A stretch of 62,003 nucleotides of DNA, filler included, from Hausera hauseri (GCA_046269625.1; 10 parts of 10 records of this genome joined end to end with filler, not necessarily neighbours in it); one strand, 5' to 3'. Counted from the whole stretch's first letter, positions 5,233 through 62,003 are shown. Program-made: numbers and translations. The notes: a model not told the origin generated them from the letters alone.

Positions 5233-5271
5233 AGTCAGCACTAAATGAAAATAAATAAACAAACCTCTGAA

Positions 5272-17580: not shown

Positions 17581-17690
17581 AAAACAGTAGAAGTCCGAAT
17601 AGGAGTAATCGAAGGAATTTAACCTTTTGTGCAATAATTCAAAATTGAAGAAGTCCGAATAGGACTAATCGAAGGAATTTAACCTTTTGT
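17581..17690. repeat. 60-bp-period tandem duplication in the LTR
   Basis: AGAAGTCCGAATAGGA(G/C)TAATCGAAGGAATTTAACCTTTTGT at 17589 and 17649. Confidence 0.9.
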
Positions 17691-18122: not shown

Positions 18123-18135
18123 TCTTCCTCCCCTT
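18123..18135 (-). promoter_or_regulatory. Polypurine tract
   Basis: AAGGGGAGGAAGA directly before the LTR start TGTTAAG on the minus strand. Confidence 0.85.
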
Positions 18136-18327
18136 AAACAAATTTTCGTCAAGAAAATTTATTGTACGGCAAAACTGGTAAAATACTGTAAGAATAAAAC
18201 ATGATTTACACTGTAACATAAAGAATGGAAGTATACATAAAATACAGTGAAGAAAAGAAAAAATAGCAAAAAATTAATGTCAAATTATTCATAATGTTCA
18301 TTAAAAACGGGGTTTTGGTTACCCATT

Positions 18328-31107: not shown

Positions 31108-31469
31108 ACACAGAGAAAGTATGTTGCTGATTAATGGATATTGACTCTAAACAAAGAATTCTTCATTGCAAATACAGATTACACAGATAATTATTAATTT
31201 CTTCTGTGTAACATTGAACTTAACAATAAAAAATAAAAACGTCAATCTATCATACAATCATAATACGTATTTGAAAAAAATATTCAAAAAAAATTTTTTT
31301 AAATAAAAAATAATTTCCAAAAAAAATATAAAATGACTATAAAGTTATTTCCAATTTGACATTTCACACTCACAAGATAGAATAATTTTATCAGAATTCC
31401 ATGTTTTATGAATTTCAACAATCACAAATTTATTTCCATTAAAGACTATTCCAAAATCCTTTACGAACT

Positions 31470-36400: not shown

Positions 36401-38901
36401 GGTGTGCGAAAGGTGCCATTAGTTCGGAGCAGTGTGATACATTTGTGTACGAAATGCAGTGTCCCTAGAAAACTCCTCATGTCGGTAGTTGTAGTTGGTA
36501 ATGCCACATTTTCCAATTGTAAGCGATCAGGCGGGGGGAGGCGTTTAATGACCATCCGGAGTAATTACGTGTCCTAAAAAGTTGATGCGTTTCTGGAAGA
36601 AATTACATTTGGTGAAATTAATTTGTAGGTTGCTTTGATTCAATCTGTGGAAAATAAATCGGAGATGCTCATGATGTTTGATGGAGGTTGAAGCGACTAG
36701 TATGTCGTCTATATATGGATGAGCAAAATCAAGACCTGAGAGTACGGTGTCAATGTGGCGTTGAAAGGTCTGAGATGCATTACGTAGGCCGAAAGGGCAT
36801 GAAAACATATTCATAAAGGCCAAACGGTGTGATGACAGCAGTTTTTGTAATATCATGAGGTGCAACAGGAATTTGATGATAGGCCTTGTGCATATAAATG
36901 GTAGAATAAGTATTGGTGTTATTCAGTCTATGAAGGATGTCCTTAATGAGTAGTAGTGGATAGGCATCTGTAATAGTCAAGTTTAATTGACGGTAGTCGC
37001 CACAAGGCCTATAAGTACCATCTTTCTTTGCTACTACATGAAGAGGGGAAGCCCAAGGTGAATTTGATCTCCGAATGATGCCAGACTTTTCAAGTTCATT
37101 GAATTCCTGTTCCACAGCTTTACGTTTTATAAGAACAGATAAGTGTATTCACATTGTGGGGAAAATTCATGTGAAAATTCACCGATCTGCTAACCCCTCC
37201 AGTGCAACCACATTTCAGGCACTACAATCCCCTCAGTCGATTTTGTGCTATTGTCCCCACTACAAGAATTCCTTAAGTCTTGAGACTTTGCAGCAGTTCT
37301 TTTGAGGTGAACCAGTTGCCAAAATAGCATCGAAAATTCACACTGAATGGAAGCGTTTCAGTCAAACGCAGCATCACTGCTCCACCAACTCCTAAATTGT
37401 TCACTGCATCAACAGTATCATTACCCATGTAAACCAGAAAATCATATACTAACTTTTATGTCCCACTTATGAGGCTTGCTCTTTATATATTGTTTCATTC
37501 CATTTCTAACCTTGAGTGGTATCATTTGTTCATCAATAGAATGCAAAGGTACTGGTTCAATGTTCAATCAATTCTGATGAAACTGGTCAATCAATGGACG
37601 AACTTTAAAAAGGATGTAACCATCTTCATCTTTAAAATTAGTGTTGTCGTTCTTAAGAATGTAAGTTCGTAGATTGTCAAATCGTGTCCTGTACGTCACA
37701 TTTGCAATGTTACTGATATGACAAGCCGGAGACCAAGTACATTCTGCACCTTGGCACCCTAAAGATTGACGTGAACAACTGCATTACGATGAACTGTTCA
37801 CTCATCAGCGGTGCATCGCAGGACTATTCCTTTCTGCATAGATATTAGTTTGTAGCAGTGTGTTCAGACATCCCTCGATCAAAAAACATTCTAAAATATT
37901 CATATGAACTTGTGGCGTCTGGTGGTTGAGAGAATGGCTGCCCACGAAATTCAAAATGCGCTTCACGTCTTGTCATTTCTTTGACAACTCCAACGATAAA
38001 CCTTCTTAGCTACTGCACGAGAAGTATTGATGTCACCATCGTCATGTAAAGAATCATTTTCAACATCACCTGTTTCAGTGCTTACTTCAACACCCCCACG
38101 ACTCTGAACTTTCACCACGAGTCTTGTTCGACGACGCTGGAGTCTGGATTCTTTATTTTATGATTCTGACTTAACACTCGACTGTGCACTCGATGTCTCT
38201 GGCACAAAATCTTCATCCGATTTTTAGTGTCATGAAATTCATGTGCATTTTCAATATCTGATACTGTGTCATCTGGAATGTAAACAAGATACAAAACTTC
38301 ATCCATACTATAATAATTTCTTGAACTCGTCGCAACTCTGTCAAGTGAATCTGAAAACATAAACAAGCAAAATTAATAAAACAACAAGAAAATGTCTACA
38401 TTATATGCACATTCTTGATTACACACCGCACACCACACACAATATAGTTTGCATGATAATTAGGCTGCACAGTGCACATGTACACTTATATGGTCGTACT
38501 TTGCCTTATGAGCCAAATGTTTCAAATTTGCAAAGTTACTTTTATCGCCTTTTTAGCTCTAATAAATATAAAATTCCTTCACAACTAATGAATGATTATT
38601 CGTCTAACATCGTTTATTCACCATTTTAGCTAATGAAAATAAAATTTTCGAACCCTGAGATTAGATAGAAATCGTCAATGTGTACGCATTATCTACTGAG
38701 AAAGTAAACATTCATATGGCGTCAGCTGATCAAATGTCACAAGCTGAGCATAGAATTTGGCAGCAAAGAACTGTTGTAATAGTGCAACACGTCCCCAAAG
38801 GGCATAGAAACACACGTAGGCTCAAAACTAGATGACTGCAAACTGTTATTAAATTATAAATAACAGTTGCAAATTTGCAACTTCTGACCCCATAGGGTTA
38901 A
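33436..38901 (-). mobile_element. Degenerate piggyBac transposon split by a Gypsy insertion (parts 37227-38897 and 33436-34037)
   Basis: TTAA|CCC terminus at 38895-38901; KVRPLI, DEQMIP, KPHKW, NWFTS, GT..QNRLRG|CPL, KW.DNK, RPEIVKAYN.HM; Cys-rich C-terminus (HWP...CLNKEKCF). Confidence 0.8.
34038..37226 (-). mobile_element. Internally deleted CsRN1-like Gypsy element (partial 5' LTR 37127-37226, RT-RH-IN, 3' LTR ~34038-34287)
   Basis: SPWASPLHVV, PCGDYRQLN, YIDD, TADAS, TDQGPQFE, PYHPQANG; both LTR copies start TGTAG and share ~90 bp. Confidence 0.88.
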
Positions 38902-39417: not shown

Positions 39418-39969
39418 GTAGGCCAAATTTTCTTCCTTAATGTATAATGCATACATGTTCTTTTATCTTGCATGTTTTATAAGCTTACATTTGTTATGTA
39501 GGCAGGCACAACATGTAAGAGAGCACAGAATGTCTATTTTCATTTCTTTAGGCTAATTATTTTGTTCCATGAAGATTTTATTTAAATTATATTGACTTAC
39601 CAAATTTTTAAATTTTATCGTGTAGCCACTAGTCATTTAACGAAATAATTCTAATATTTGGTATTCAACTTATTATTTTCATATTTGTGTCGTACTTATA
39701 ATAATTCTCCTTTTACAATTTTTGCCTTTCATGCAATTTTCTATAATTTACCGTATGATTTTGGTAATGCATTAAAATTATTCAGCAACCGTGGACTACT
39801 TCCTCCTCCAGTAACCCCCATGAGCCATTCGTTTTTGAAGGAGCATATTGGAGGCAATTATGAAAATTANNNNNNNNNNNNNNNNNNNNNNNNNNNNNNN
39901 NNNNNNNNNNNNNTTAATTAATTAANNNNNNNNNNNNNNNNNNNNNNNNNNNNNNNNNNNNNNNNNNNN

Positions 39970-40510
39970 TAGATGCATTGACCTCCAGCCTGATGAAGAA
40001 TATCTAATCGTTTTCACTCAACACCATGCTGTAACGAGACATCGAATAATTAGAACTCAAACAAGAACTAGAAAATATTTAGCACTTGAAGAATTTCCAA
40101 TTTATACAACCCTACATCTAGTAACTAGGCCCACTACTCAAACCAATATGTTGAAAATCTTAATACCCTCCATAATAATAGTATTCTTTCTACTGTCCAT
40201 ATCCGCACCCTTTGTAATCATAGAATTAAAAAGATTTTCTAAAAAACGTACTATTATGAACAAAACCTTGTTACTCTCAACCAACCTAATATGCTTAGTA
40301 GGTTGTAGTGTGGCGTGGACGGTCGACGCTGAAAGGGATAAAACGTTTAACGTTAAAAATAACTACACTAAATTACATACACTACACAGAACGATAACAA
40401 TGATATACACATCAAAAAGTATAAGCAAATCTCAACCAATATATTTGCAACAACATAAACAACAAATAAAGCATCGAAGGGTAACCACCTACCTTCTAAC
40501 AAACCATTAA
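39970..40510 (+). CDS. C-terminal part of the Gypsy FN3/TM membrane protein
   Basis: RCIDLQPDEEYLIVF then LIPSIIIVFFLLSISAPFVIIEL-KRFSKKR-MNKTLLLSTNLICL, collinear with the 18328-21564 ORF. Confidence 0.8.
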
Positions 40511-40545
40511 AAATGACCTGCTATCAATTTATTTTTCTTTTCAGC

Positions 40546-42584
40546 ATGGATAATTTGAATACGCTAATTTATATACCCGAAAATCAAGGAGAAGAATTTA
40601 ATCCCGATTTGGACGGATCCAGTACAGAGTCAGATTCTAATGCTTCTATTATATCTATACTGCCAAATCCTAAAAGAAAAGTTCTATTACCTAATCAAGA
40701 ACAATTAACCTCTTTTACCTTTTCAAATGCATTGGCTACACTAATGACTAGAGGAATATTGGCACCCAAAACAAAGGATAAAAACCTGAGATAAGGAAAA
40801 CATCAATATCCATTTTGGACATCCGTTGCAAGCCTATAACCTATGATGATCTACCAGATCATAAGAAACTCAAATTACAAACCCAGATACTCAATAATAT
40901 ATCTCAAACCGATGAATACCAGTTATTAAATCGATCTATCAATGAATTGACTGATAAAAATTTATTCGAATCTACGATCCAAATCGAAATCTATATTCAT
41001 CCAAATTTTATGCTTATCTAACAGAATTAACTGAATCGCCAACGGACATTTTATATCCTGAATGCAAATACTTGGATAATGGATTGAAGACTACTACTCT
41101 CAATGATAGATCATTCAGAATACTAAAAATCGAAAATCCTGTATATAACTGTAACCTCACCAAATTGTTCGCCATACATGAAGATATTGACAAAGTTCTT
41201 GTGCACCTTGCTAAAGGGAAGATTCAACTAAGAGCACATTCCGACACCTTTAATGGACTTGATGAAACACGCACCATATTAACCAGTAAAAATTCTATGA
41301 AATTAGAACTGGCTGCTCTCCAAACACAGATTTATTTTAGAGTATAACTAACACCAGTAATACTTAGTATAGAAACATGCCACAAATCAGATCCAATGAT
41401 AGAACTTAAGAAACCCTTATTTCATAGTAGACCACCTTCAGGTACTATCAATTACAAGCTAACAATAACTTGTAATTATAGATATTTGGCTGCCTCTTTA
41501 GTTTATGCTGCTAATGGTGATCCTCTACCTATAGAGGTTATAATAGCAGACGAAAAGCAGCTAATCCTCTATCAAGCTTTCCTAAACCCAAGAAGGCGGA
41601 TATGAAATACAAACGAGCACATCCATGGGTTAAATATGCAACTTATACAAGAAGCTGCAGACGAAGATGTAATACGAAAAGAATTATTCAAGTTTCTTTT
41701 TAAATACGTAGTGGTCAGTGTCAATACCAATGCCATTTTAAAAGCACTACGAATGCCCAAGAGTCTGACATTCGGAAATTTAGATCTACTAGCTACGAAA
41801 AATACAAAAGAACGTTTTAAAGAACATGGATTACGAATTATTCTAACCCAATCGCCAACAATTTATGATTTTTCTTATGATTTTCCCAAAACCGCTGAAA
41901 CAGTTCTACAAGCGATATTCGAAATATATAACAAAGTCGAAAACTCATGCTCTAACGAAAATTGGACATTCGACTGGAACCCGCCTCGAAAGAATCTGAT
42001 AGATATAGGAAGATTCATACAAATTGAATCCACTTATCATGAAAATTATCAATTCGACAAAATCGAATCTATCTCTCCAATTGACGAGATGAAAATTAAT
42101 ACAGTTTCCATTTTAAAGCCAAAACCGGAAATAACATTTACAAGGCTTTCTATTTTATTATATGGAAAATATGGTGGATCTATAAATGTGCGCTACATTC
42201 CTCAAGCAATATACTCCATAACCACAGAGCACCTAATACTCCCAAATAAAAATTTTGAATGTGTTAGGTATAGTATATAAAAATGCTACTCATCAAACGC
42301 TCCACCTAGCCATAATTGGTGGTAATATAGAAGAATTGTTAAAAGTAGAACACGAAACGTTATTGACGCATCAACCAATTCCAATACAACTGGAACATAC
42401 TCCTATTCTCAAACCAAGGAGAAGACTACCAGTTCAATTAAAAAATACTGCCAAACAAAAGGTCCGTATGATTTTGTATAAAAACAAAACTGAACTAATA
42501 TTGGAAAATCTGTACAAAATGCCAATTTCAAATCAGTCAAGCGAAGAACTACTCCAATCAGTTTATCCGGCTATCCAAATCTGA
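40546..42584 (+). pseudogene. Gypsy 3' accessory ORF with an inactive DEDDh-like domain, degenerate
   Basis: Collinear with the C-terminal ~700 aa of 18328-21564 (DLD.SSTESDS, GKIQLR, PLP(I/V)EVIIAD, HGL, NE.W...W.PP); several stops and frameshifts. Confidence 0.85.
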
Positions 42585-42769
42585 CTTTATATCTTATTTG
42601 TGATGAACAAGTAATTGATTAGACTTTAATCTTTGTGATGATACTTTTGAACATTTTGTAGTTTTATTTTTATATGTAACGAATTTTATGCTTTTACTGT
42701 ACATATACTAGTGCACTATGTAAAAATGAAAGGAGTGACTTATCAAAATTTTCATAAGAAAATTTTTAT

Positions 42770-42785
42770 AAAAGGGGGTGGAAGA
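42770..42785 (+). promoter_or_regulatory. Polypurine tract
   Basis: AAAAGGGGGTGGAAGA, matching AAGGGGAGGAAGA in the other copy. Confidence 0.8.
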
Positions 42786-44103
42786 CGTTACAGAATGAGG
42801 TCAGAAATTAATTGATGATTAATTTATTTGAATTATGAGTACAAAATGTCAAGAAACATTTTTAAAATTTGTAAACATCATAGTTAGATTAATGAATCGT
42901 GAAATTACAACTAAAATCAGTCCAAAACAGTAATGCGTTAATTGCTGGATGTTGAAAGCAAGTTTTGCTTAATTACTGATTTGAGTTTTTTTTCGCAATG
43001 ACAAAGTGTCAACTACTACATTCATGATTTTATCGATTAAACGATGTAATTTAAATGATAAAATGATAACTATTTCATCAATTGAAAATGCTACACGAAA
43101 GCATTTAATAAACTAAAATTATGACACAAAATATACAGTAAACGGAGTATGTCGATGTTACTGCTAAATCAAACAGTATTATTAAACAGCACTTATTTTG
43201 ATAAACGAAAATTATCAATATACAGTAAATGAATTATATCGTTTGATTTTATTGATGTTACTGCTAAAATTAAACAGCACTATTAAACACCCACTATAAT
43301 TGAACCAACACCTATATGAATTAAATCAACACCCATACAAATTAAATCAACACCCACAAAGTAAATAAGCAAAACACCCCTGACAAAATAAATTTCTCCC
43401 AATAACGTAAAAATACTATAAAAGAAAAACCAAAAAGAATGAGAATGAACAGCAGTTAACATAGAAAATTTACTCAATTACGAGTCAAATATCACTCCTT
43501 TTATTTTCAAATTATTCGTGATTATTGTACATTTCTGGGTTCAATTCCCATCTTGTACATTTACGAAATTGCAATTTTGCTTTTCAGTTACTAATTGGAC
43601 TTCGGTAAACTTTTATTTATTTTTGTAAGAAACCATATTATTTGTTGTTCTTTCTATTCTCTATAATTAATTTTAAACTCAATCCCACAAATTAATCAAG
43701 CGGCAGCGGTCGAAACCAAAGTAGACCATCGCTGAACTACACAAAAGTAAATAAATTAAAACATTAAGGGAAAATAATTCTTTCTTTTGATTTAAATATT
43801 TTCCTTCTCAATCCATTTCGTTTGGATTAGAACAAATCATACATAAGGGACTCCAACAACAATTGAAATTTCATTAAATGTTTACGAAAATTAAAAATTT
43901 CTTAAGAAAATTAAGAAACAGAATTGAATTTTTAATCTGGGTTACTGAAGAAAGATCAGAATTTTTCTTCGGAAGAAAAGCTATACAAAAAGAAATAAAA
44001 CATCAACAAGAATTAAATATGCAACGAAGCTTTTAATTAGAGACAAGAATCCGAATTTTTAAACTCTTCAATATAGTTTGAAATTTTGGACAGTGAACCA
44101 ACA
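42786..44103 (+). mobile_element. Complete ~1.3-kb LTR (CGTTA...CAACA; first base presumably T>C)
   Basis: Bounded by PPT on the left and PBS on the right; internal short repeats at 43131-43380; homologous to 17019-18122. Confidence 0.8.
43878..44036 (+). CDS. LTR-encoded 52-aa ORF MFTKIKNFLRKLRNRIEFLIWVTEERSEFFFGRKAIQKEIKHQQELNMQRSF
   Basis: ATG-to-TAA ORF below the ORF-track cutoff; protein-level conservation with 17019-17106. Confidence 0.75.
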   Translation: MFTKIKNFLRKLRNRIEFLIWVTEERSEFFFGRKAIQKEIKHQQELNMQRSF

Positions 44104-44107
44104 TTTC

Positions 44108-44126
44108 TGGCGACCCTAACAGGACT
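44108..44126 (+). promoter_or_regulatory. Primer-binding site, tRNA-Arg type
   Basis: TGGCGACCCTAACAGGACT versus TGGCGACCGTGACAGGACT, the complement of a tRNA-Arg(UCG) 3' end as recalled; 4 nt after the LTR end. Confidence 0.8.
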
Positions 44127-44287
44127 TGTCTCTAAATCAAAGTTACAATTAAAACACAAACATACCTAGAAAATGTCCTAATAAACGTGCGACTGTCGAC
44201 TCCACACAAAATCTATAACTTAAAGATCTAGTAGTAAACCTAGAACCTTTAAATCTTGCCTTATTATATCCAGACTTACAAAACGAA

Positions 44288-45397
44288 ATGGCACAACCTC
44301 CACCAATTAACTTAACCATTCATAAACCTCTAAATATTCCAAAATATAACGGCGATCCTGCCGGTTTACTCAAGTTTTTGAAAACTTATCGCTTATTAAG
44401 CGAAGGATTAGGCGTTGATCAACAAGCCTATATCCGTAGAATGCCCCTCTACTTAGATGAAGTAGCTCTTGACGTTTTCCAAGAAATAACTCCTGAAGAA
44501 AAAGCTGATTGGGATAAATTAACCTCTGCACTAATTAAACGTTTGATGCCAACGGTAACCCCAACAGCTCAACTAGCCATCTTACAAAAAAGATTTCAAC
44601 AATCTGGCGAAACTGTTACTCAGTATTCTTATGCCCTATCAGAACTAGTAAAAAATTACGCCAACACTGTTAAGACCCAAATCTTAATTAAAAAACCTAA
44701 CGCAAAAGAAGATGAATTAAAGGTTGAAACAGACATTCACCTATTAACCCAATTTTTGAAAGGTGTCAGAAAAGACATCAAAACAGACATCTTAAAAAGA
44801 AATTGCCTAACATTCAATGAAGCAGTGCGTGAAGCACAGAATCTCGAGGCATATGTAGGCCCTTATAAAGACGAACGATTTTCTAAGTCTAACCAAAGAT
44901 TTAACAATCAAAATTCGAATAACCAACAACAAAATCAGCAACAGAACCAATCTAAATCTCAAAATGAAAATAATCAACAACAAAGCCAAAATAGAACCCA
45001 ACAAAATCAAAATAATTACAATAATTTAAACAATACCAACAGTTCATATTCAAAGAATAATAATTATGGAAAAAGACAGAATAAGAATAACAATTCATCT
45101 AACCAATATCAACAAAAAGGACGTGTTGATGTTAATAGAAATGGTACACCTTTAGTTTGCCGAAGATGCGAACAAACAGGCCATAATTCAATAAACTGCA
45201 TGAACCTTCTATATCAACTTCCAAGAGTAAAACAAGAAAATACAGTCAATTTATCATCCCTTCATGAAACATTAGATGTTAAGCTAAAATTAGATAAATT
45301 AACACCCCAAGTTAAAGAACAATTTATCAATCAAGCCGCTAATGCTCGATTTTATGCTGTTAATGTAAACGATAAACAAAACAACGAAATCAAATAA
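44288..45397 (+). CDS. gag: Intact Ty3/Gypsy Gag (capsid, Q/N-rich linker, CCHC knuckle)
   Basis: IPKYNGDP...FL..Y; MPLYLDEVALDVF; FQQSGETVTQYSYAL; QFLKGVR; CRRCEQTGHNSINC. Confidence 0.92.
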   Translation: MAQPPPINLTIHKPLNIPKYNGDPAGLLKFLKTYRLLSEGLGVDQQAYIRRMPLYLDEVALDVFQEITPEEKADWDKLTSALIKRLMPTVTPTAQLAILQKRFQQSGETVTQYSYALSELVKNYANTVKTQILIKKPNAKEDELKVETDIHLLTQFLKGVRKDIKTDILKRNCLTFNEAVREAQNLEAYVGPYKDERFSKSNQRFNNQNSNNQQQNQQQNQSKSQNENNQQQSQNRTQQNQNNYNNLNNTNSSYSKNNNYGKRQNKNNNSSNQYQQKGRVDVNRNGTPLVCRRCEQTGHNSINCMNLLYQLPRVKQENTVNLSSLHETLDVKLKLDKLTPQVKEQFINQAANARFYAVNVNDKQNNEIK

Positions 45398-46869
45398 AAT
45401 AATTAAGACTATTTTCAGCATTCGAATTGAACTAATTAACGATACGAAAAAACAATTGAATGTATTTTGTTTTGTCCATTTTCACACCATTAAATGATAA
45501 ATTAGAATTCTCCTATTTTTATTATAGGACAAATGATTCTCTAGTTGGTCCTTGAAAAGGATTGGTCGGTATTTCTAGATAGTCGTGATAAAAAGTATTG
45601 ATCTGGTGCTTTTCACTTAGCGCATTGACTGTTTTTGTACCAGGATTAATTTTGAGTTGTATTGAGGCACAACAGCACATTTTTCTTGCAAGGAGACTTA
45701 CCTAATTTTATGTTAATTGCTGTTCTGTCGATTTTGTTCATTTTTATTTATATTCACGTTACTGTTTTCAAATTGCCGATTAATTCTTTGGCTCATAACA
45801 AGTTGGATGAATTCGTAAACAAAGGCTACAGATGGATCTGTTCGACATTCGGTGATCCGAGTGGGGACAAAATCCTTGGTGTTATACAAAATAATAAAAA
45901 CGGGGCGATCTTGGATTTGCACAAATTGCAACTGGTTGGCTATTTGTAATCCTCGCAGTGTAGCTGCGATAGACGTAACGAGATTGGAAACGGTCGACAC
46001 GGTTCTATTGATTGTTATTAAATCCTGATAGCCACTGTTATTTTGCTACATTTGACGATTTTATAACTCTACCGCACAACTATATCTGAAATTGCCGTTA
46101 ATGTAGAGCTTGGAATAGCAGCATTAAGTGTGGGTCTGGACCGCTCAGCAGCAAGATTCTGTGACGGATGATGAAAAGCCGCAATTACCGACAACGTCGG
46201 GGCAAAAACGCCGCACCGGTTAAACCGGCCAAAATGGTCCACTGGGCAAAACAACATTGTGAACACTACAATACATTTCATGAAACAAAATTATAATAAT
46301 GTAAGTTACCAAGTAATAATGTCGACTTTGGATTTCTCCGATCGATCAGTGTTTTATTCTTAGATACTATTAGTTAGATTAAATAGACAATGTAAATAAA
46401 TTTGTTCATAGTTTGTCCGATTACAACAATATTAATAATTTAGACTAAACACATCAGTGATCACAAACTATAAGCCGAATATTCGATGGATATTTCTTAT
46501 TTCAGCAGAACATAAAGGAAATGCTGTAAATCGAATGTTAAAAGAATATTAACTTGAGAAATGTGATGAAAATCTTGTCAAAGTTCAAAAGTTCTTACAT
46601 ATGGGGAATTTGAACAAGTGCGTAATGGCCTAACACTTACACACTCGAAATGCGTTATCCTGGCTTCTTTAGCAAGTTTTTTTTCATATTACCATACAAG
46701 CATTATGTTATGAACTGAGCAAATGTTCCAAAATAAAGATTAGTAAATATCAGAGTAGGCGGCTAATTGNNNNNNNNNNNNNNNNNNNNNNNNNNNNNNN
46801 NNNNNNNNNNNNNTTAATTAATTAANNNNNNNNNNNNNNNNNNNNNNNNNNNNNNNNNNNNNNNNNNNN

Positions 46870-48489: not shown

Positions 48490-51400
48490 TGTTAGATGTT
48501 ACTAATGCTTGTGGAGTTGTTTGAGGGAGAGACTGTAGATTTCGTGGTGTTTTGGGAGGATGCTTCATGAAGAGGGAAAAGGATCACGCGCAGAAGATGA
48601 GACTGGAGATGTGAACGAATCGTGCAATGAAGGTGAAATGAGTAGTGGATGTGCAGGCGATGACGGAGAAGCCAATGTTGAAAGAGCAGTGGATGATGAC
48701 GGAAGTGAAGAAAACTGATTGTGACGCGAGACTAAATGCTGCGAAAGACTAAAATCATCAAGGAAATTAAATGATGTATCGAGGGTAGAGAAGTTAGAGT
48801 TGGAATTTGAGACAATGCTGTTATCCTGGTCAACGAAGAAGGCCGGCTTAAGATTAGAAATGTCTACGTTGTGAGGTCTGTCTTTGCATAAAATAATGTC
48901 GTATGCAAAGAAAGGTTCACTAATTTGTAAAAGCCAACGTATTGGAGCCGAAAACCAGAAGGAGACGGATCCTTCAGCCATACAAACTTGGCTGAGTATA
49001 AGTCCTCTGGGATATAAGATTTATCTTTATTTGTAAGGCGGCAGAAGGCATTCGAGTTGACATCAGAAAAGTAGGACTGTGTTGCACGAATAACTTTATC
49101 TGACGGACTTTCATCAAAATTGGAGAGCTCAAATAGTGCACGAACTGGTGTCCCAAAGAGAGCCTCAGCTGGTGCACGGCCTGTGGTGGTGAATGGCGTG
49201 TTGCGCCAACCGAGTAGGACAAGAGGAAGAATTGAGATCCAGTTATGATTGTTGTTTGCCAGGATTTTTAAGGAAATCTTCATGGTGCGATAAAATCTTT
49301 CGAGAAGACCATTTGCTTGAAGATGGTACGCCGTCATATGGAGACGGGCTATCTCCAAGTACTTTACGAGAGATTTGAAAAAATCAGCTTCAAATTGCGG
49401 ACCCTGGTCCGTTATAATGTGACGTGGTGAGCCAAAACGGCTGACCCATATCTTGATAAATGCATCTGCTACTGAGTCAGTGTTAGCTGATCGAAGCGGA
49501 ACGGCTTCTGGCCAGCGAGAAGCGTGATCCATCATGGATAAGATATATTGATAACCATTGTCGGTAGATAGAGGACCCACAAGTGCTAAATGCACGGTTT
49601 CAAAACGAGAAGTGCAAGGGAAGTGGTAGAGTGGTGGTTTGAGGTGCTATGAACCTTGTATTGCTGACATGCTACACATCCCGTGACCCAGATCTGTACA
49701 TCGGTACTGATAGTTGGCCATACAACGTGGCGTTGCAATAGGCGAAATGTGGCTTTTGAACCCGGAGAATGAAGACAGTGAAAGTGATTGAAAGCTGTTC
49801 TAGTCCTTTTCGTGGGTAAAGTAAATCCATAGTAATGATAAATTCCGAACGATAAATTCCAAAAAAGGAGAAGCTGATTATTAACTTTTATTTCTTTAAA
49901 CTTCAATTCTTTTTAAAAAAACTGCGATCAATTATCTTTCATCAATATTTATTTACTTTATATTTATTTACACAACACTTATATACAATATTTCTTTACA
50001 CAATAATACTCTTCTGCCCACTAGAAGGGAATATTGTAAAAGTGTAAGATGAGGTAAAAAGTTATTTGTAAGGACATTTTGGAAATTTGTCAATTGAGGA
50101 AAGATATACACTGAATCATCGAAATTGTCTTCCAGGGATAATGAATGGTAAAATATTTTCGTTGATGTAAGTCTATGAATCTAAGACGGATGGATACAAG
50201 AACTGATAACTTCCCGTAACATTTTGTCTGTCATTACATGAGGGTATCTGGAAACTGGCCGCTCAATGCGTTTATGACAACTCACCTTACTGTATGACAT
50301 TCATCATATGGACTTATTTTTTGTTTCTAACATCGTGCTGTTCATTGTAAATTTTAGAAGCCGTGAATACAACAGTTTCCTAGTATCGTATCCAAAATTG
50401 CCAAACTGAACATTGAGATATCGACCCGTTGTTTGTTTTCTAAAATGAGAGAGTCACATGTTGGAGAGATGACTATTTTCGCTTAAGGTTGAATTTTTAC
50501 CTCTGAGGAAACGAGCTGCGCCCGCGACAGCTGTACCACAGCTGTCTTTTGAAGCGAAGGAGCAAAAATAATTTTCTTGTTAATCGAGTTGGAGGTGTCA
50601 TAAGCGACGCCATCGATGATTTTAACAGATTTAAAAGCTTGAAAAATATCAGATGATGGCTGATTGTTTCTCAGGACCTCAGAGGAGAAAATTGGCTAAA
50701 CTGTAATTGAGTTAACCGACCGCGAAAGAAAGTCCGCTACTAAATTTTCGGTGCCTGAAATATATTTCATGGAAAAACTAAATGTTGACAGATATGATAT
50801 CTGTCGTTCTTGTCTGGGTGAGGGCTGTTTCAAAGTCATTATGTAAAGTATAGGCTTATGGTCGGTTTGGATGGTAAATTGGCGTGAAAGAAGCAAGTGC
50901 TTGAAATGCTTTACCGCTAGAACTACACCCAAGAGTTCACGATCGAATGTTGAGTATTGACTTTCCGGTTGCGTGAACGTCTGGGAATAAAATTCTAATG
51001 GTTCATCGACGCCTTTGTATATTTGGTGTAATATTGCACCAGTTGCTGTGGTTGAGGCATCGGTAGTTAATATTAGTTCAGCGTTTGGCTTTGGAAAGGC
51101 CAATATTTCCACAGTTTTCAGACCTTCACGAAGGCGATCAAATTAGTTTACTAGATTTGGAGTCCAATGGATTAATTGTCTTTTCTACCCAGATGAGACG
51201 TGTGCCAAAGGTGCCGTTAATTTGGAGCAGTGTATCATGTATTTGTGTACGAAATTTAATGTGCCTAGAAAACTCCTCATATCGGTAGTAGTGGTTGGCA
51301 ACGTCACATTTTTTAATTGTTGTAAGCGATCAGGCTTGGGCAAATGCCCTTTGGGAGTAATTATGTGACCTAAGAAGTTGACATGTTTCTGGAAGAAATT

Positions 51401-53680
51401 GCATTTCTCAAAATTAATTTGCAGGTTGCTTTGATGCAATTTGTGAAAAATAATCCTAAGGTGCTCATGATGTTGTTGGATGGAGCTGGAAGCAACTAAT
51501 ATGTCATCTATGTATGGATGAGCAAAATAAAGACCAGAAATAACGGTGTCAATGTGGCGCTGAAAGGTCTGAGATGCACTACGTAGGCCGAAAGGCATGA
51601 AGTTGTATTCATAAAGGCCAAATGGTGTAATGACAGCAGTTTTTGGAATGTCATCAGGTGAAACAGGAATTTGCTGGTAGGCCTTGAACAAATCAATGGT
51701 AGAGTATGTATTGGTGTTATTAAGGCTATGGAGAATATCCTTAATGAATGGTAGTGAATAAACACCTGTAATAGTTAGGTTGTTTAATTGTCGATAGTCG
51801 CCACATGGCCTATGGGTACCATCTTTCTTTACCACTTAATGAAGAGGAGAAGCCCACGTGAATTCGATCTCCGAATGATGCCAGACCTTTCCAGTTTATT
51901 AAATTCCTGTTCCACAGCTTTACGTCTGCGTGGTGACAAGGGTCTGACCTTTTGTTTGATCGGCCTTTAATGCTCTGTAATAATGTGATGATAGGTTAAG
52001 AATAAGAGTTTGAAGTTGATTTAACTTTTAACTATGCGAAAGCATGATGTCGTGATGTACGATTTAAGATTGTAGTCTAGAGAAAGGAATGAATGAGGCA
52101 TATCATCAGAAAGAACAACTCCAATGATTGACGAAAGGTAACTGGCATTGCTACTGTCGACGCCTAATTTGGATTTTTGTTTTAGAATAGATTCATGATT
52201 GTCGTTCATAATTGAAGTATTACCGACTTTATCGGAAGTTTTTTATAGATTACGAAACATTCAACATGTTTACAGAGGAGTGCAATGAATGACTCGCTAA
52301 GTTGTGTACGAGACATATGTTTGGAGTGGCAATCGAGTTCCTACTTAAAAGACAGCCGTATTTGCAGTCGACCAATAGATCATGTGCGGCTGGAAAATCT
52401 GAGCTTATTGTGGGAGATTTAATGTTGGCTACGCGGAACTTCCAGACAAACTTATTTGGCAAGTTAACAAATGTAAAAGTCAATTCAATGGTTCCTGAAA
52501 CGTACAACGGTTGACCACTAGCAGTGAAAAACGGTGGACAGGAAATTATAGTGGATGTAGGAGTAAAGGACAAGGGAAGGAGTGAAAAAGCAGCTCCTGA
52601 GTCTATAAGTAAGTCGATATGTGAAGTATCTCTGCATAACAGCGCAGTTTTCAACAGAAAGACTACAGAGACGGTTTTAAAACGGCCAGAAGATTGAGCA
52701 ATATTGCCTACGACAATGTGCCGTAAAATCTGGCGGCATTATTAATTTTTTGAAGGATTTGGAGAAAAGGAAGAAGAGAAAAAAAGCGAGGAGATTTATC
52801 GTTGTAATGTTTACAACCGGGCACGCATGATCTAGCCTGTGACTGGTATTTGTTGTGGTATGTGCAAATAGGGTTGTCCACAGCGTACCGTTCGCTGTAA
52901 AACCAACAGCTCAAAAAGCATTTCCTAGCATCGCTTCAAAATTGCGTGTGATAAAAGCTAATCATACGTCCTCCAGGTGAAATGGATAGAGTAGAGTGTC
53001 TGGAAATGCTCCTCTTCCTTGAAGATCTTGTTTCACTTCGTCGAGGCCCATTAAGATTATTTAGTTGGGTAGTAATGGCCAAAATCGACTGAAGTAACTT
53101 GTCAAACTGTTGCTGCATTATTTGCAATTGTTGAGTAAAAAATGTTGGGCCTGTAGTTGGGGCACATGTGGTTTTAGCCGCAATAGAAAGAGAACTGTTG
53201 GTATGAAGAATCTCAAAGGATTTGTCAACTATTATTGCCAGTTTTTCGATAACAGTGGACTCGTCGACAACGGTGATTAAGGCTCTGATTGAGGTTGGCA
53301 AAGATGGCAAGAAATAACGGCGAATTAAATCCGCGTTATTCGTAGGTGTCATTCTTAGAGGGCTAAACTACAAAATGGCCGTTTGGAGAAAATAGGATGG
53401 CTTTTGGTTTCGTATCGCGTGGTCGCTAAAATACTTTTGTATTATATTTCCAATCGAAGGATCCGTGACATGCATTACAGCTTCACAGAGAGTCTCGTAA
53501 GGTGTCGAGGATTGGAGCAGCTCGAAGATGTTACTAATCTGCTGCTTGACGTTGGCAGGCAGAAGAACTTAAAGACTGTTGGCTTGCACAAAAGAATCAG
53601 TGGTGTTTTTTCTATTTTAGCCACTGTTGGTGGAATTAAAGCCATGTATTGTGCTCTGCTGTCCGATGGTTCTTAAAATT
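48490..53680 (-). mobile_element. CsRN1/Kabuki-type Gypsy gag-pol, degenerate
   Basis: Gag knuckle ICTYHNKY...ARSCVPGC; protease LIDSGA; RT PCGDYRQLN and YIDD; RH TTDAS, ELL, TDHK; IN TDQGPQFE, ANGLLER. Same family as 34038-37226. Confidence 0.92.
49799..50540 (-). mobile_element. LTR-derived insertion inside the integrase zinc-finger region
   Basis: Flanked by GCTGT direct repeats; starts TGTGG and matches the LTR at 46870-47029; absent at the equivalent site in the other copy (~35755). Confidence 0.65.
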
Positions 53681-53837: not shown

Positions 53838-55220
53838 ATGTGCCGATTAATAACATTGATATAACAAGCGTGCGGAAATGGAGAGGGATTTAGAATATCC
53901 GTAATTAAAACATTGCAACCGCAGATAAGAGAATTACGCGAAAGGATCCAGGTCGGACATGCGGCACTAATGAACTACGAGTTACCTGACACAGATAATG
54001 AAGCCAAGTGGGATGATTATCTATAAGGCCTAACCGAGCAAAGTCAAAGAACTCCAATACAAATTTATGAGTCACCTACTGGTGCACAGAAGATGAAATA
54101 TATCGTGCAAATGCTACTCGATCCTGCGCTAGATGAAAAGGAATTGAGTGGTGCATTGAAAGTAAACATAAGTGAAGAAAGGTTAAGGAAGTTAATTCCG
54201 ACTTTGACTAAGCTATCCAGTGAAAACACCGCCCACCGCGCTGTACTCAAGCTCTTAATAAGAGAGTACGCAAAGGTATTGAAAAATAAACATGAAGCAG
54301 AAATTAAAGTGAAAGTATCGTCTGAAGGAATGGATGATGAGGAATTTGAATGTACTAACTATACCACCGTTGGGGACATAAGACAACGGATAATGAATAA
54401 AGATGGTAGGGAAGAAGTTAATTACCGGCTCTATTTCAGAGGTAGGATAATAGATGAGCCAGAATTCTTAATAGACGTAAGGATAATACCACTCGAAGAA
54501 AACCGAATAATAGCAATAATCACCAGATAGCAAAGCAAAGATGAAGCCGTAAGAAAGGCACATACAGAGAATTGCGTTGGGAAAATCATGGGGATTCAAG
54601 ATGCCGCAATGTATTTCGAATACTTACAGACTGATGACGACAAACCGCAATACGATAAAAATTTAGTTCCTTTAAGAGAAACCGTACCACCTACAAAATC
54701 GAAACGACCGGTCGAAAGACCGAGAAAAACAAAAGAAATTGATTATAATGCAGACTTAATTAGGGAATTGAGACAACTATCCGTACCAACTCCAAGTTCA
54801 GATGATAATGAACTAATTAAGCTAATGAAAGACCTTATCAGGATAGTTAATTATACCGGACTCCAAGGCGACGTATTATGCGGAAAAGAAAGATTAATAC
54901 ATAATATAGCTTGGAAAATGAAGACGTCACGATTCAAATTAAGTAAAAGCACCCTCCCTGATAAAACGGTAATCGATAGAATCATGATAGACAATACGAT
55001 GGAAGAGTTAAGGAAAGTCTTGATATATTTGGCAGTAAGAACTAATCCTCTCCGAGAAAACGAATTCGACAGGACAATTGGGTTAGCTAGAAAAGCTGCA
55101 AGAAGGGTGCCTAAAGAAATAAAGTGGACTAAATTGTTTGAAAAAGAGGATAATACAAAACAGACTAATAAGTTAGAAGAAATGCTCCGAAATATCTCTC
55201 CGAACAAAGGAAACGAATCC
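53838..55220 (+). pseudogene. Upstream polyprotein segment containing a ubiquitin-like domain (54303-54527)
   Basis: Same frame as the glycoprotein start, with single stops at 54024 and 54528. IKVKV...TTVGDIRQRIMNKDG...YRLYFRGRIIDE...LIDVRI parallels ubiquitin TIENVKAKIQDKEG...QRLIFAGKQLED...LSDYNI. Confidence 0.7.
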
Positions 55221-57010
55221 AGTTGGTTAATCAACCTGCTAACGATAATGATGCTAGTAAAGCAGTTAGGAACAATTACCATATACGACTGTGATAAATT
55301 AATAGTGAGTCAGAAATATTCCTTGATAAACTTAGAAACAGGTGAAGATGCGAGGCTTCACAAGCTCCAGACAATAGAGATTAAATATATACTATATCAA
55401 CAACGTGAGTTAATCTCAATGGATGCAACAGAATGCACGATACATAGATCCCGTAGCGTGTTTCACTATGGTAATATGCACGGCCATTGTTCAATAATCA
55501 AACCTACCACACCATTGATACCAATGAACGTAGACATACAACATTGCTTAGGAGCCCGGTCAACCAGTAAAATGGTTTGGGACGGCATGGAATTGGAAGC
55601 CCAAGAAGGGAAGATAATCAGAGCTTACAAAGTGGCAGTGGGAAAATTGAACGTGCACACCGGTTATTGTGTCGGGGAAGAATATGACACAGGGAAGGGA
55701 ATAGAAGCAGGAATAGTAGTCGTAGATTTTTATGAAACCAAGCTAAGATCTTTAAGCGATGTTTCATAGTGTTACCAAACTATTTACCGAAAATCAGAAA
55801 TGTCACATTCATGATGGTGCTTGCACGTTCTGAAGTTCAGTTATCGTATGGAATCCATCCCCCAAGAAGAATTGTAATTTCATTAAAATCAGAGTTGAAA
55901 TTTAATGATACCACCGTGAAGCGTTATTCGAGCAAATAGGGAGGATATAATAGAACAATCCACACCGACGATACTAATATCAGATGTGCACGGGTTAAAA
56001 TTTATCAGAAAGAATATGCTATCGCGCTGCGATGTAGTTATGTATGCCATTAACTACGAAGCATTTTTTGTAGCAGAAAGAGAAATTGATATGACAACGT
56101 ATATTTTAAAAACACAAAATGTGCGGATCGACGATTACCTCAAAAACCAAGACGATTATTTCTATTACAAAGGGCAGACCGGGAAAGGTGAACTCTATCA
56201 CAAAATGATAACAAATGACTGCAGATAAGATATTGAAGTCATGAGAGCCAAACTGTCTTTAACTTACGCCAACCCAGAATTGGCATCACCGATTATACCA
56301 ATGAAAGAAGGTGTTTTTGGATGGGTTACCGGAGAAGTCCTATTAACCTACGAATGGGAGAAAAGAGACGTACCGATTAACGTAGAAGAGAAAATTTGCA
56401 TTCAAGAATTACCGGACATGTATAAGAATATGCCGAGACTAGCGATGCCACTTACCAGAGTATTATTGACAAACTCAACCGAACCAACAATACTGAAGGA
56501 ATGTAAAACGAGCTTAGGCGAACCAATCTTTAGTCGCAGTCGATCCGACTGGATAAGTCTACCAAATGGAGGTACGACTGCAGCTCCTAGTAAATTAACG
56601 GGGACAAATCTAATCAGAGGATTATCGGAAGACAAATTCGAAGATACAGCTAACAAAGGAATTTATAGGCCAAAGGACATAGAAGACTTTAGGCAATCTT
56701 TAGCATTTCCGCGATAGTGAACTTATAAACTGAATCGGGCCATGTCAATGGTCATGGATGACACCTGCTTTCAAGCGAAATGGGAATTGTTACTTGGTGC
56801 TAATCACTATCAAAGGGTAACTTCAGAAATATTGTACAAGATTTTGGGAAGATTTTTAATTTGCGGACAAGCCGCATCAGGATTATTAGCCATATACTTA
56901 TTAGTTTAGTTAATTAATGCAGTGATCCAAGCTATTATAAACGGATATGAAATATTTACTTGACAGGATTCTCTTGCAAAATTTTGACCGCAATTATCAC
57001 ACCCTTTCGA
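55221..57010 (+). pseudogene. env: Chuvirus (Jingchuvirales)-like class III fusion glycoprotein, degenerate
   Basis: Signal WLINLLTIMMLVKQLG then IYDC; ECTIHRSRSVFHYGNMHGH; TGYCVG; ELYHKMITNDC; TGEVLLTYE; CIQELP; PLTRVL; GIY...DIEDFRQSLAFP; membrane region GQAASGLLAIYLLV.LINAVIQAIING. All collinear with chuvirus-type G as recalled. Confidence 0.85.
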
Positions 57011-60000
57011 AAGATGCTTAAGGCCTACGAAAAAAATCGCTGGAAAAATGACGTAGAACGCCACGTCGGGTACTATAACCGCAAACGCCGAGGGAGGCCC
57101 TCTATTTTGTATAAACGTAAAAGTAAGACAACAGTAACACGAAAGGATCATTCAGATGATGACGAGCCTAAGGGAGGAGAAGTGAGATCTAGAATGAAGA
57201 AGCAAAAAATGTACTCAGTGATTAATGCGCCGTTACCTATCATGCCGCCAACAGCACCAATATATGAAGACTGCGACCGCAAATCAATCACATCATGCAG
57301 GTCAGAAATCTATCAAAAGCCCATTAATTATGAAGATCCTTATGAGAAGACAAAACAATATGGAGAACTATGGAAAATGAATGTTATCAACCAAGGACCT
57401 ACAGCAAACGACAATGGAATATTGTACTCAAAAAGAATACAGCGCCACATAGAATCGAAATCAACGATCTGGGAAAACCCGAAACTGTGTTCGATCTCGG
57501 GTTTACTATCTCAGGAACCGCTCATTGACAGTCACGTCAATGAGATGGCAAATAATAATTTATACCCAAACGGAAAATTAAGACAGTTAAGAGAAAATCT
57601 TTTCTCATTGCCAGAAATAACGATAAACGGATACAGAGTCTCTAGTATAAAACGGTCAAAGATAGCGTCAAATTCTTACGGAACAGTAGCAGAAGGGAGG
57701 CCTTTCGCCAAAATATACATCGAGAATTGAGAGGTGTACGCATTGATCGACACAGGATCAGAAAAATCATTTATAAAATATGAATTTATACAAACCACAC
57801 TGCGAGATCAGCTATGCTGGCCATTATTGTCAGATCCTGGTAGCGCAGGAGCATTTGGGCAAGTATCGAAACCGAAATTTAAATGGACTCCTATTTTTCA
57901 TATGATGGGCCAAGCACTCCAACATGAATTTGCCATAATGGACCAATTAACGGATAATGTAGTACTAGGTTGTGATATATTGAAACCGATACCAGGCATG
58001 ACAATCGATGTGCATAACGGAAAATTAATTGAGTTCGAACCAACAAAAGAAACAAAAGTAATAAAGGAAAGGAAATCGGGCGAAGTATGGATTCGGGTAG
58101 ATGAAGACATTCAGTCCAGAAACGAAATGGTAATTTTCGCACAAATTCGTCAAGACAAAGACCTACCAGTATATTTCGAACCTCAAGAGAATATCGATCC
58201 AAACCTTATGTTTAGAAATATTCTATGTAGATTAGTGATGGGACAAATACCTATCAAACTAGTAAACAATGCACCAATTCCCATAAGATTGCACGCTGAC
58301 ACTACTTTAGGTCACACTTGCAGAGTATTGGCAGTAACAATAGAAGAGAAACCATACAAGTGTGCTGAATTTCTACGTCATGTTAAAACCAAATTCTCTC
58401 CTGAGGCTTATTGCAAGTTCTACGAACTATTATGTAAGTACAGTTCAACAGTCGCACAAAATGAAGAAGACATCGGCAGAGCCAAAGCTCTACGAATAAC
58501 GATTCCATTAAGGAAGAAACCCGGCTTGAATGATGAAATCGGTCTAAAAGAACAAAAAATGTCCAAATGGTAACCACCTTTACATTCGTTGAGACCAGAA
58601 ATAACTAAAGAAGTAGAGCAAATGTTAAAGGCCGATATAATTCGACCAAACTACCGATCATGATACTCACCTATACTTATGGTTAAAAAAAACGGAACTA
58701 CAAAACATCGATTTTGTATAGATTATCGGGCATTGAACACACTGATGACGAAAGACTCGATTTCCATACCGTCAGTAAAAGAAGCTTTAGACAGACTCTC
58801 AGGAGCGAAATGGTTTACCACTCTCGACTTACAATCGGGATACTGGCAAGTGTAAATCGAAGAAGAAGATCTATATAAAGCAGCGTTTAAATCACACAAT
58901 GGCGTATACGAATTTAATGTTACGCCTTTCGGCATCACCACAGGACCAGCTGTTTTTGCGAGAATGTTTAATAAGATACTATGGGACTTGATCATTCATT
59001 GGCGTACTTAGACGACGTGATGATAGCATCAAGAACGGAGGAGGAACATTTAAAGGACATTGAGGATACACTCATGCGGCTAGAACAAACAGGGCTGAAA
59101 CTAAATCCAAAGAAATGTAAAAGGGCACAGAACGCAGTACCGTACCTCGTACACATAGTTGGAGAAGGAAGATCAAAACCAGACAAGTCACTGCTTGATA
59201 AAGTATCCGATTGTATGGAACCACAGAATGAAAAGAGTTAAGACACTGGTTAGCCCTATGTGGATATTACGCCCCTTACGTACCAGACAATTCAAAAATT
59301 AACGCGCCATTATATCGCCTACTCAAAAAACGAACTAAGTGGAAATGGTCAGAAGTGGAACACAAAGCGTTCGACGAAATGAAGAAAGTTTTGAGAAGCG
59401 AACCAGTTTTAAGATACATGGATTTTAATCTACCATTCATAATTAAAACAGATGCAAGTAAAGAAGGCGTAGGATACGAATTAGCTCAGAAACAAGAGGA
59501 CAAAGAATTAGAACATCCAGTAGCCTATGGAAGACGCCGGTTAAAGAAAGCGGAAAAGAATTATTCGGTTACCGAATTAGAAATGTTAGCCGTAAAAGAA
59601 GCATTACGACATTTTAACGTCTATGTCTATGGACAAAAGATTACCATAGTGACTGATCACAAAGCAGTTACAACATTGAAAGGACGAGATAATAATCCAA
59701 TATGTAGATTAAACCGTTGGATCGAAGAAATCTCACGATATAACATTGAATTTCAATACAAACCGGGTAATAAACACGTCGACGCCGACAAACTATCAAG
59801 ACTGAAGACAAAAACGAGTGCAATCACCACAATAAAAAAGTCACAACTCGAACAGTTAATTGAACGACAAAGTACTCTAATATTGGATAAGTCGATTAGG
59901 ATTACAGCTGAGCAAGCTAAAGACACGGTTATTCAGCAAATCATCGAGTTCATACAAAATGACAAAATTCCAAAAGGACGGCAACTGAAAAAGCATCTAC

Positions 60001-61180
60001 AGAAACACGGACATAAATATCGCGCATCGAAACAAGATAATACCCTATATTTCGAGCGGAAAGGAAGAAGACTAATAATTATTCCAAAAGGATTGCGTAT
60101 CTAAGTACTCATGGACAAACACGATTCATACTTATCCGGACACATGTCTTGGAAAAGGACATTTGAAAGGATATTAAATAAATATTACTGGCCAAGTATC
60201 TATATTTATGTAAAGAATTGGGTAGGAGTATGCGAAATTTGCGAAACAAAACAGAAAAAGACGAAAGGTTACGTAGCAGAATTAAAGCCCATAAATGTAC
60301 CAGATAGGCCCATGCAAGCCATGTCTATGGATATAGTAGGACCCTTGCCCAAGACTCACAAAAATAACAGATACATTCTGATATGCATGGACCGACTAAT
60401 GCACTTCGTCGAACTAGTGGCACTATTAGATAAAAAGGCAGAAACTTTAGCCAACGCAATGGTAAGAAAAATTATCTGCAGATATGGACCACCCAAATAG
60501 ATCTTAACAGACAGAGGAAGAAACTTCAAAAGCTAATTATTTGAAAAAATTACCAAGATATTCGAAGTCGAACGTTTAACTACTACGGTGTATCACTCCC
60601 AATATAATGGGATGGTCGAACGAATGAATGCAACAGTTATTCGGATATTATCAATAGTACTGGCAAAAGACCAAAAAGATTGGGACGAATTTCTAGAAGG
60701 AATACAATTCGCCATGAACACGACACCACATCCAGCAACAGGGTTTACACCGTTCTTTATGATGTATGGATGAGAAGCAATCTTACCTACAGATCTAGGT
60801 ATGACACCGTACGAAAGGAACATCGAGAAACTCGAGCAAAACTTTGCAGAAGTCTTATTGACAAGACTGCAAAGGTGTTGGGAAGTTGCAAAAACATTAT
60901 CGCTTGAATATGAGTAACAATTTAAAAAACGATATGATAAAAAAACTAAGCCTCATGATCTGGAAAGGGGAAATTGAGTTTATATACATTACCCGGTCGC
61001 AAAGAAAGATGCATCCTTGAAATTAACACGTACTGGGAGAGAACCTTACGAAATCACCCGCACAACGCCAACTACGGTCTTTATTAACAAAAATGGAAAA
61101 GAGGAAGTCGCATCGATCCAAAGAGTAGTTAAAACGGATATAGGACCAATTAAACACTACAATCTAAGACCGCAAGAAAA
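57011..61180 (+). mobile_element. pol: Glycoprotein cytoplasmic tail plus Ty3/Gypsy pol (PR-RT-RH-IN), degenerate
   Basis: ALIDTGS at ~57740-57760; RFCIDYRALN, LDLQSGYWQ, AYLDD; KTDAS, ELEMLAV, TDHK, DADKLSR; H..H...C..C, DIVGPLP, TDRG, GMVERMN. Confidence 0.95.
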
Positions 61181-62003
61181 TAAAACCTCTTCGATTGTCA
61201 CTAGACCAGTATCTTATGCACAGATAATAGTAGAATTATCATTGATTGCGGTTTTAACGCCCAAATCTAATGCGACCCATTAAAACAGATGCTAGAAGAA
61301 AATATAGCCAGTATAACGGGAAATCCAAAGGACAACTGTGTTCAAATAAACAAAAAAGGCGATTAATTAAGGGACGAGTAATTACAGTTCAATTCATTAA
61401 AGAGAACAAAGCAGATCCGGACCAACAGTACTGTCAAATTGACGTCAAACGACCGAAAATATGTTGCAAGTTACCCCAAAAATACAAATATAGGATTCAA
61501 TTAGACTTATATGAAGTTCGACTAAACCAGTCGAGTATTTATTTAGGAAGTTACCAGTTGGGAAATACAATCGGGCATGTTCCGCGGAAGATGACAAGTA
61601 GAATTACAAAAGCAAAGACTACTACTACTATATCCAGCAGAATCACTCCGACCAGTGGATTGTCTCAAAAGGAGCCAGAAATAATTACCATAAAATATTG
61701 GACACAACAACATGAAATACCGTTCTTGGTAGAAGAAGCACTTAATTATGATGTAGAAATAAACTGCCGAACAGAACATAATAATCAGAAGGTAACATTG
61801 GTTAAAGGCAGTCATCGAATCAATTGTATCTACTTGAAACCCAAAACTGACTATGTGATACAAATAAGTGCAGAAAATAGACAAAGCAAAACCTTTACGG
61901 TACGAACGTTAAAGGAGATCGTCTTAATGAAACCACTAATCGATGACGAAACGAAATGCGAAATCTCGACTACCGTTGAAACTGAAAAACTAACTAAAGG
62001 AAC
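61181..62003 (+). pseudogene. Post-integrase membrane protein (signal-like segment, Cys-rich unit, FN3-like domain), frameshifted and cut by window end
   Basis: YAQIIVELSLIAVL in frame with the IN tail; IASITGNP..NCVQI...YCQI....KICC aligns to 2795-3028; CIYLKPKTDYVIQISAEN is an FN3 C-terminal motif. Confidence 0.75.

Follow-up and report, generated by a model that had tools for sequence, protein, structure and literature searches.

How do the enzymes of a reverse-transcribing element reach the particle when the envelope gene sits within the polyprotein? The question arises at a locus of Hausera hauseri. The window, i.e., the whole stretch of DNA analysed (62,003 nucleotides, filler included), consists of short contigs chained by spacers (44 N, 12 bases, 44 N). 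One N-spacer ends at 53837, and the piece that follows it, 53838–62003 on the plus strand, is a retroelement fragment of ~8.2 kb, truncated by the spacer at its 5' side and by the window end at its 3' side, with neither Gag nor LTRs of this copy in view. Its features, all on the plus strand, are as follows:

53838–62003, +, decayed Ty3/gypsy-type retrotransposon, internal fragment (colinear with intact relatives by tblastn; sister contigs cover 30/30 and 28/30 bins)
53841–55220, +, region X, in the frame of the start of the fusion glycoprotein G (three stops; no Gag domain seen)
54135–54488, +, helical stretch and ubiquitin/SUMO-like domain (Pfam ubiquitin E 0.001, below cut-off; profile match)
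54840–55170, +, possible diverged BCL2-like stretch, a candidate by position alone (match in relative P0006 at the equivalent place)
55227–55283, +, predicted internal signal-peptide-like hydrophobic run (KD 1.66; layout matches 11/11 relatives)
55284–56882, +, putative class III fusion glycoprotein ectodomain, broken (PF24664; gB matches of the family profile)
56883–56957, +, predicted transmembrane anchor of G (KD 2.47; hydrophobic run 56883–56939; relatives align to 56957)
56958–57696, +, tail/linker, open, in the protease frame, following the frame break at ~56959
57697–57990, +, aspartyl protease with DTGS (RVP E 0.0066; relatives align through the stop at 57728)
58031–58570, +, spacer between protease and reverse transcriptase (PR-RT), kept with relatives (24.4 bits versus 7.5 for the best shuffle)
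58574–59235, +, core of the reverse transcriptase, with stops and a frame break at ~58985 (RVT_1 E 2e-15 and 6e-10)
59232–61130, +, RNase H and integrase with zinc finger and core, with a break at ~59230 and six stops (RT_RNaseH_2 E 2e-33, Integrase_H2C2 9e-15, rve 7e-11)
61215–62001, +, post-integrase region: a moderately hydrophobic run, a break at ~61260–61280, then an FN3-like frame open past the window end

Intact relatives are colinear with the window from the signal to the integrase in tblastn alignments. The copy in the window is dead and is itself incapable of the life cycle proposed below: the frame damage in reverse transcriptase, RNase H and integrase alone amounts to nine stops and breaks at ~58985 and ~59230. 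No direct repeat of at least 30 nt touching the element appeared among the 20 largest families listed. Overall, we are fairly confident that this is a high-copy, decayed Ty3/gypsy element, likely of the kind known as Burro, in which G precedes the protease and whose intact relatives carry G and Pol in a single frame with predicted threading through the ER.

The initial annotation had proposed a chuvirus-like class III fusion protein at this place, and profile searches agreed. Reading 55221–56957 with stops as X yielded a match to the Pfam family Monjiviricetes_fusion (PF24664; E 5.6e-35, 120.9 bits, cut-off 27), and the other two frames of the same interval matched no Pfam family. We then aligned the G frame of the window with 87 hits and compared the resulting family profile with the PDB, where all 37 sequences recovered at E up to 1 were herpesvirus gB (best 6e-4). 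These comparisons support G as a class III (chuvirus/gB-type) fusion protein at the level of the family. The window copy retains 10 of the 11 near-invariant residues of the G family. A single frameshift at ~56960 had been claimed for G; the break itself was recovered (at ~56959), but the reading frame is also lost at ~55752 and regained at ~55895, and it is interrupted by five stops. One of these, 55831, belongs to the shifted stretch; the others are 56226, 56715, 56718 and 56907, and the stop at 56907 falls within the transmembrane run.

Beyond the anchor, the frame read-out agreed with the tail of 256 aa that had been described in the protease frame with a single stop. The tail is open over 56951–57727 (259 codons from stop to stop, 256 counted from 56960), and its frame is that of GRPFAKIYIEN*EVYALIDTGS, in which the lone stop lies at 57728. 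This stop is inside the protease domain rather than ahead of it. A programmed read-through stop was considered and rejected, since 57728 falls within the protease and is absent from most sister contigs. The linker between G and protease measures 251 aa in the window versus 78–1406 aa in six relatives.

The remainder of Pol places the element in the Ty3/gypsy group: we found the order protease, reverse transcriptase, RNase H and integrase (PR-RT-RH-IN), a gypsy-type RNase H, an H2C2 integrase, and gypsy-type proteins as Pol neighbours. A search with Pol only recovered 65 generic gypsy proteins at 25–47% identity, and PF24664 was absent from the precomputed domains of these 65; these matches do not place the element. 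In a tree of reverse transcriptase and RNase H (21 rows), the window, itself a long branch, attaches where six G-fused rows separate from the 14 others and sides with the former (88/90). The tree of RNase H and integrase has 23 rows; of 72 rows, 22 had been removed for short cover and 28 for more than 70% identity. There the window, again on a long branch, falls outside the starred G-fused clade at a position that is not fixed, so that the placement by Pol is weak. The PR-RT spacer occupies the place of the dUTPase-like motif of Burro, and no Pfam match to dUTPase was obtained within it.

Upstream of G, the ubiquitin/SUMO-like stretch scored 21.3 bits against a profile of P0005, P0013 and P0020, and the highest of 500 shuffles reached 11.2. 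The stretch at 54840–55170 is the place at which P0006 carries a weak Pfam Bcl-2 match (E 0.00096); for a BCL2-like motif in the window, a profile of three relatives scored no higher than shuffles, and a sequence search of the stretch against the PDB returned nothing below E 0.38. Downstream of the integrase, the frame 61258–62001 reached 17.3 bits with a profile of three relatives, a score that none of 500 shuffles matched (highest 11.4). Domain searches of this frame gave FN3 leads (fn3 E 0.039; Atlas 0.87, a lead only), none above threshold. Four relatives (P0002, P0003, P0151 and P0012) carry more signal-like and transmembrane-like runs beyond the integrase in the same ORF. The post-integrase region likely encodes a second membrane protein, FN3-like in character.

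To ask how these parts were once joined, we turned to the relatives of G. A HMMER search with G against 1.84 billion representative proteins returned 215 hits, 12 of them at E up to 1e-30, and all 12 were scanned for domains. In nine of the 12, a protease follows G in one ORF (weakly in P0007, E 0.0018), and in four that ORF also includes reverse transcriptase and RNase H. The three without a protease end early: P0010 and P0011 stop inside the ectodomain and P0006 shortly past the anchor, as P0013 likewise does. The entire order G-PR-RT-RH-IN is present in one ORF in P0151 (4844 aa, a cluster member with ankyrin repeats) and in P0016 (2146 aa), the latter with weak capsid and CCHC matches ahead of G. 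Similarly, P0015 and P0005 run from gag or CCHC through G to the protease, and gag or CCHC features stand at the ORF head in P0005, P0015, P0016 and P0020. Additional copies of the protease are found in the linkers of P0003, P0005 and P0151.

The matches closest to G come from polyproteins of retroelements, at E down to 1e-66. Proteins of the size of G that stand alone were recovered at E 3e-14 or weaker, and the relatives with G after Pol (P0026, P0055 and P0122) are far weaker than the nearest ones, at E 8e-14 or worse; in P0055, DUF5641 is followed by G. Word-based protein searches yielded no longer relatives of G, and these are weak blanks, as the HMMER search did recover such relatives. 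The relatives share only 25–33% identity with the window in G, and they are therefore evidence for the layout of the family, not for that of the window's own lineage.

For the lineage itself, we examined sister contigs from two sequence runs, X1 and X2, which contributed 21,383 and 309 pieces, respectively, at a likeness of at least 80%; the contigs are short, and one of the runs may be the source sample. Sister contigs with many differing letters bridge the junctions between X and G (at least two), between anchor and tail (at least two) and between tail and protease (at least three). Codon 57728 is a sense codon in 39 X1 contigs (2238/2336 of the depth, 96%) and in 4/4 from X2. Variable sites in 57660–57800 fall mostly at third positions of the protease frame (18/23, p 1e-5), including 8 of the 12 located upstream of the stop. 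At 56959, seven X1 contigs and two X2 contigs differ in length from the window, corresponding to 17% of the X1 depth (880/5243, with an uncertain true site coverage of the remainder) and 68% of that of X2. With only 17% in X1 versus 68% in X2, the case for a private lesion is weaker for the break than for the stop.

The lesions of the window copy are not common to all sister copies. The initial annotation had asked whether they vanish among genomic copies: the stop is indeed absent from most, and at the break contigs differ in length from the window in the proportions given above. The opposite outcome, a stop and a frameshift conserved across copies, did not come true. Its proposal of an ancestral X-G-tail-PR-RT-RH-IN ORF holds up well, with protease joined to G in nine of the 12 relatives, extension into reverse transcriptase in four, and sister contigs bridging the junctions; these alignments support a single ancestral ORF. 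Taken jointly, the identity of the element and its ancestral single ORF are conclusions that we hold with strong confidence.

Two other readings of the locus need to be weighed against the single ORF. In the lineage of the window, G could terminate at its own stop at 56961, with the tail and Pol expressed by a programmed frameshift or as a separate ORF. The G frame does close directly past the anchor, viral-type G proteins terminate soon past theirs, and over most of the X1 depth no change in length is seen at 56959. Against this, nine of the 12 closest relatives are open straight through, nine sister contigs from two runs differ in length exactly at 56959, inspection by eye revealed no XXXYYYZ slippery heptamer in the G frame before the stop, and the window copy has many other breaks, so that we regard a genuine end of G at this point as improbable. 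A chuvirus-derived endogenous viral element (EVE) inserted into, or misassembled onto, an ordinary gypsy element is less probable still, to the point of being hardly credible. It would fit a window built as a chain of short repeat contigs, and chuvirus-type G EVEs of arthropods adjoin gypsy fragments in the part of that report considered here (PMC10084718). However, both borders of G are bridged by divergent sister contigs in two runs, the longest word common to the two borders is 7 nt, and the closest matches of G are retroelement polyproteins, with stand-alone G proteins again at E 3e-14 or weaker. A private insertion or misassembly of G was accordingly rejected, being largely refuted by the bridging contigs, and membership among chuvirus EVEs was set aside on the same bridged borders and on the nearest relatives being retroelement polyproteins. 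Secondary insertion, misassembly or absence of G from sister copies, which the initial annotation had named as outcomes that would overturn its reading, did not materialise in either run.

We next considered how a single ORF that places G between Gag and Pol would be threaded through a membrane. All 11 relatives examined have the same arrangement: behind a hydrophobic run comes a short polar segment whose last residue is Ala (10) or Gly (1), and G then starts with [YF]DC. This junction looks like a signal-peptidase site; in the window, the residue ahead of YDC is Ile, which makes a poor cleavage site. An internal signal peptide is a plausible topology for G, as judged from hydropathy.

A concrete model for the ancestral polyprotein is suggested by this signal-like site, conserved among relatives, together with the likely membrane protein beyond the integrase. 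Its Gag-accessory part would be synthesised in the cytosol, until the internal signal peptide directs G to the lumen. Host signal peptidase would cleave ahead of [YF]DC, parting Gag from G and thereby separating Gag from Pol during synthesis. The anchor of G would then bring the tail and PR-RT-RH-IN back to the cytosol, and a second signal beyond the integrase would export the FN3-like protein, which would have its own anchor and may help attachment. Pol, held on the cytosolic tail of G, would be collected at budding sites and released by its own protease, and G would let the particle merge with an adjacent cell.

We consider the core of this model, the packaging of Pol through a tether to Env, evenly poised between true and false. 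In its full form, the whole particle would derive from one flavivirus-style polyprotein comprising Gag, signal, class III fusogen, anchor, Pol, signal, FN3-like attachment protein and anchor; signal peptidase would set a 1:1:1:1 ratio, and Pol would be packaged between two anchors and not as Gag-Pol. This fuller version is distinctly speculative, and we think it rather unlikely. If true, it would constitute a new assembly route for a reverse-transcribing particle, resembling that of a flavivirus polyprotein, and it would provide the fusogen with a separate attachment partner in one chain, for which no earlier case was found in the literature searched.

The main competitor to tethering keeps the single ORF but does not have Pol ride on Env: splicing that removes env from the RNA could produce Gag-Pol, or the protease could release Pol early, with packaging through RNA or Gag. 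Foamy viruses package Pol through RNA or Gag. Splicing and delivery as Gag-Pol are usual in LTR elements as a matter of general knowledge, the additional linker proteases of P0003, P0005 and P0151 could cleave early, and a linker that varies from 78 to 1406 aa also speaks for this possibility; the conserved signal-like site counts against it, since it would separate Gag and Pol in the unspliced product. We judge this course a real possibility, though less likely than not.

The closest published counterparts are the planarian elements Burro/GYPSM1. According to the parts of PMC6431247 considered here, these are giant gypsy-like LTR elements of ~30 kb with one ORF of ~4900 aa, which encodes, all in frame, Gag, Ubi/SUMO, BCL2, env, PR, a dUTPase-like domain and RT; the env matches mononegavirus fusion glycoproteins and is presented there as the first case of an env set in frame between gag and pol, and Dugesia japonica harbours decaying Burro copies with stops and frameshifts (PMC6431247). 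Compared with this published description, the window shares a mononegavirus-type env in frame between Gag-side accessory domains and the protease, as attested by nine of the 12 closest relatives and by the absence of the stop from most sister contigs. It also shares the order PR-RT-RH-IN and, weakly, a Ubi/SUMO-like domain upstream of env, and its relative P0151 (4844 aa) is comparable with Burro ORF1 near 4900 aa. The searches of the window described above did not confirm the BCL2-like and dUTPase-like motifs of Burro. Membrane topology, a post-integrase membrane protein and fibronectin go unmentioned in the searched text of PMC6431247, whose figure may differ.

A second group comprises the GAG-ENV-POL errantiviruses, described in the part of PMC13524379 considered here as carrying an HSV/gB-type env ahead of a pol of the Ty3/gypsy type and as occurring in Nematoda, Bryozoa and Platyhelminthes, with nine flatworm rows of up to 215 copies in the supplement and some env ectodomains bounded by two transmembrane segments. 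On the basis of sequence profiles, the window resembles them in its gB-type class III env ahead of pol; those elements are intact with uninterrupted ORFs, whereas the window copy is broken by many stops and frame breaks. The main text of PMC13524379 as searched mentions neither a fused or in-frame polyprotein nor fibronectin nor Burro (its figures may differ). Env-tethered Pol and a post-integrase FN3-like protein were likewise not found in the searched text of PMC6431247 and PMC13524379; their figures, Grohme 2018 or Sacco 2022 may describe them. Non-canonical nematode ERVs, in which a metavirus captured an RNA-virus glycoprotein and env precedes pol, are also covered there (per the part of PMC13524379 considered here), and they differ from the window in belonging to a nematode clade.

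Membership of the window in BEL/Pao was rejected, as G lies upstream and only a sub-threshold Peptidase_A17 match (E 0.017) was seen, under the RNase H match. A continuous gag-env-pro-pol ORF has reportedly been found in nematode ERVs by Sacco et al. in 2022 (J Gen Virol). The mosquito BEL/Pao elements with chuvirus-like G (PMC7642597) and the Jingchuvirales G EVEs (PMC10084718) share the Pfam family of G with the window, to judge from the parts of those reports considered here; the BEL/Pao elements carry G past the end of Pol, as P0055 does, whereas in the window Pol is gypsy-type and G comes first. The initial annotation did not know a chuvirus-like G in this position; the parts of PMC6431247 and PMC13524379 considered here do not support its novelty. 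An env inside gag-pol is already published, in Burro/GYPSM1 and in the GAG-ENV-POL elements, and the window adds to these a divergent, dead example.

The main element, a decayed Ty3/gypsy fragment, likely encodes a second membrane protein downstream of its integrase, an FN3-like protein at 61215-62001. In intact relatives, this post-integrase protein lies in a single ORF with Pol and contains signal-like and TM-like runs. The Pol or 3' end of an element similar to the main one was detected in three other pieces of the window:

1-5271: Pol or 3' end of similar element
16975-21564 (-): Pol or 3' end of similar element
39926-46769: Pol or 3' end of similar element

The 16975-21564 (-) piece matched the FN3-like region of the main element at E 3e-5 and the 39926-46769 piece at E 2e-48. 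Each of these matching regions is followed by a TM-like run and by long accessory frames matching no Pfam family.

Other repeats, frames and fragments in the window are as follows:

5906-6756 (-): Gag-like fragment
10953-11711 (+): type B DNA polymerase (DNA_pol_B_2, E 2e-13)
14608-15114 (-): TBP-like frame (E 1e-7)
25532-26264: MITE-like inverted repeat (183-nt arms, 84% complementary, spaced by 367 nt)
30127-31146 (-): 339-aa open frame resembling a host gene exon, matching no Pfam family
34400-37130 (-): ordinary gypsy element, first copy, no env in view
48600-53400 (-): ordinary gypsy element, second copy, no env in view

The two gypsy copies are ~80-90% alike. We infer that the polymerase and TBP-like frames are parts of a Polinton- or adintovirus-like element.

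Among related proteins recovered by our search, P0003, P0005, P0151 and P0001 carry multiple aspartyl-protease copies between G and RT, with some copies also downstream of integrase. P0151 has six matched stretches, alongside ankyrin and C2H2 domains. Another relative, P0002 (HBK71150.1), is a G-PR-RT-RH-IN retroelement polyprotein whose NCBI entry is assigned to a Flavobacteriaceae MAG, probably through eukaryotic contamination of the bin. Since the Gag-like fragment is 54-75% identical to the head of P0020, a further related protein, sequence resemblance suggests that the host lineage is near that of the G-fused relatives.
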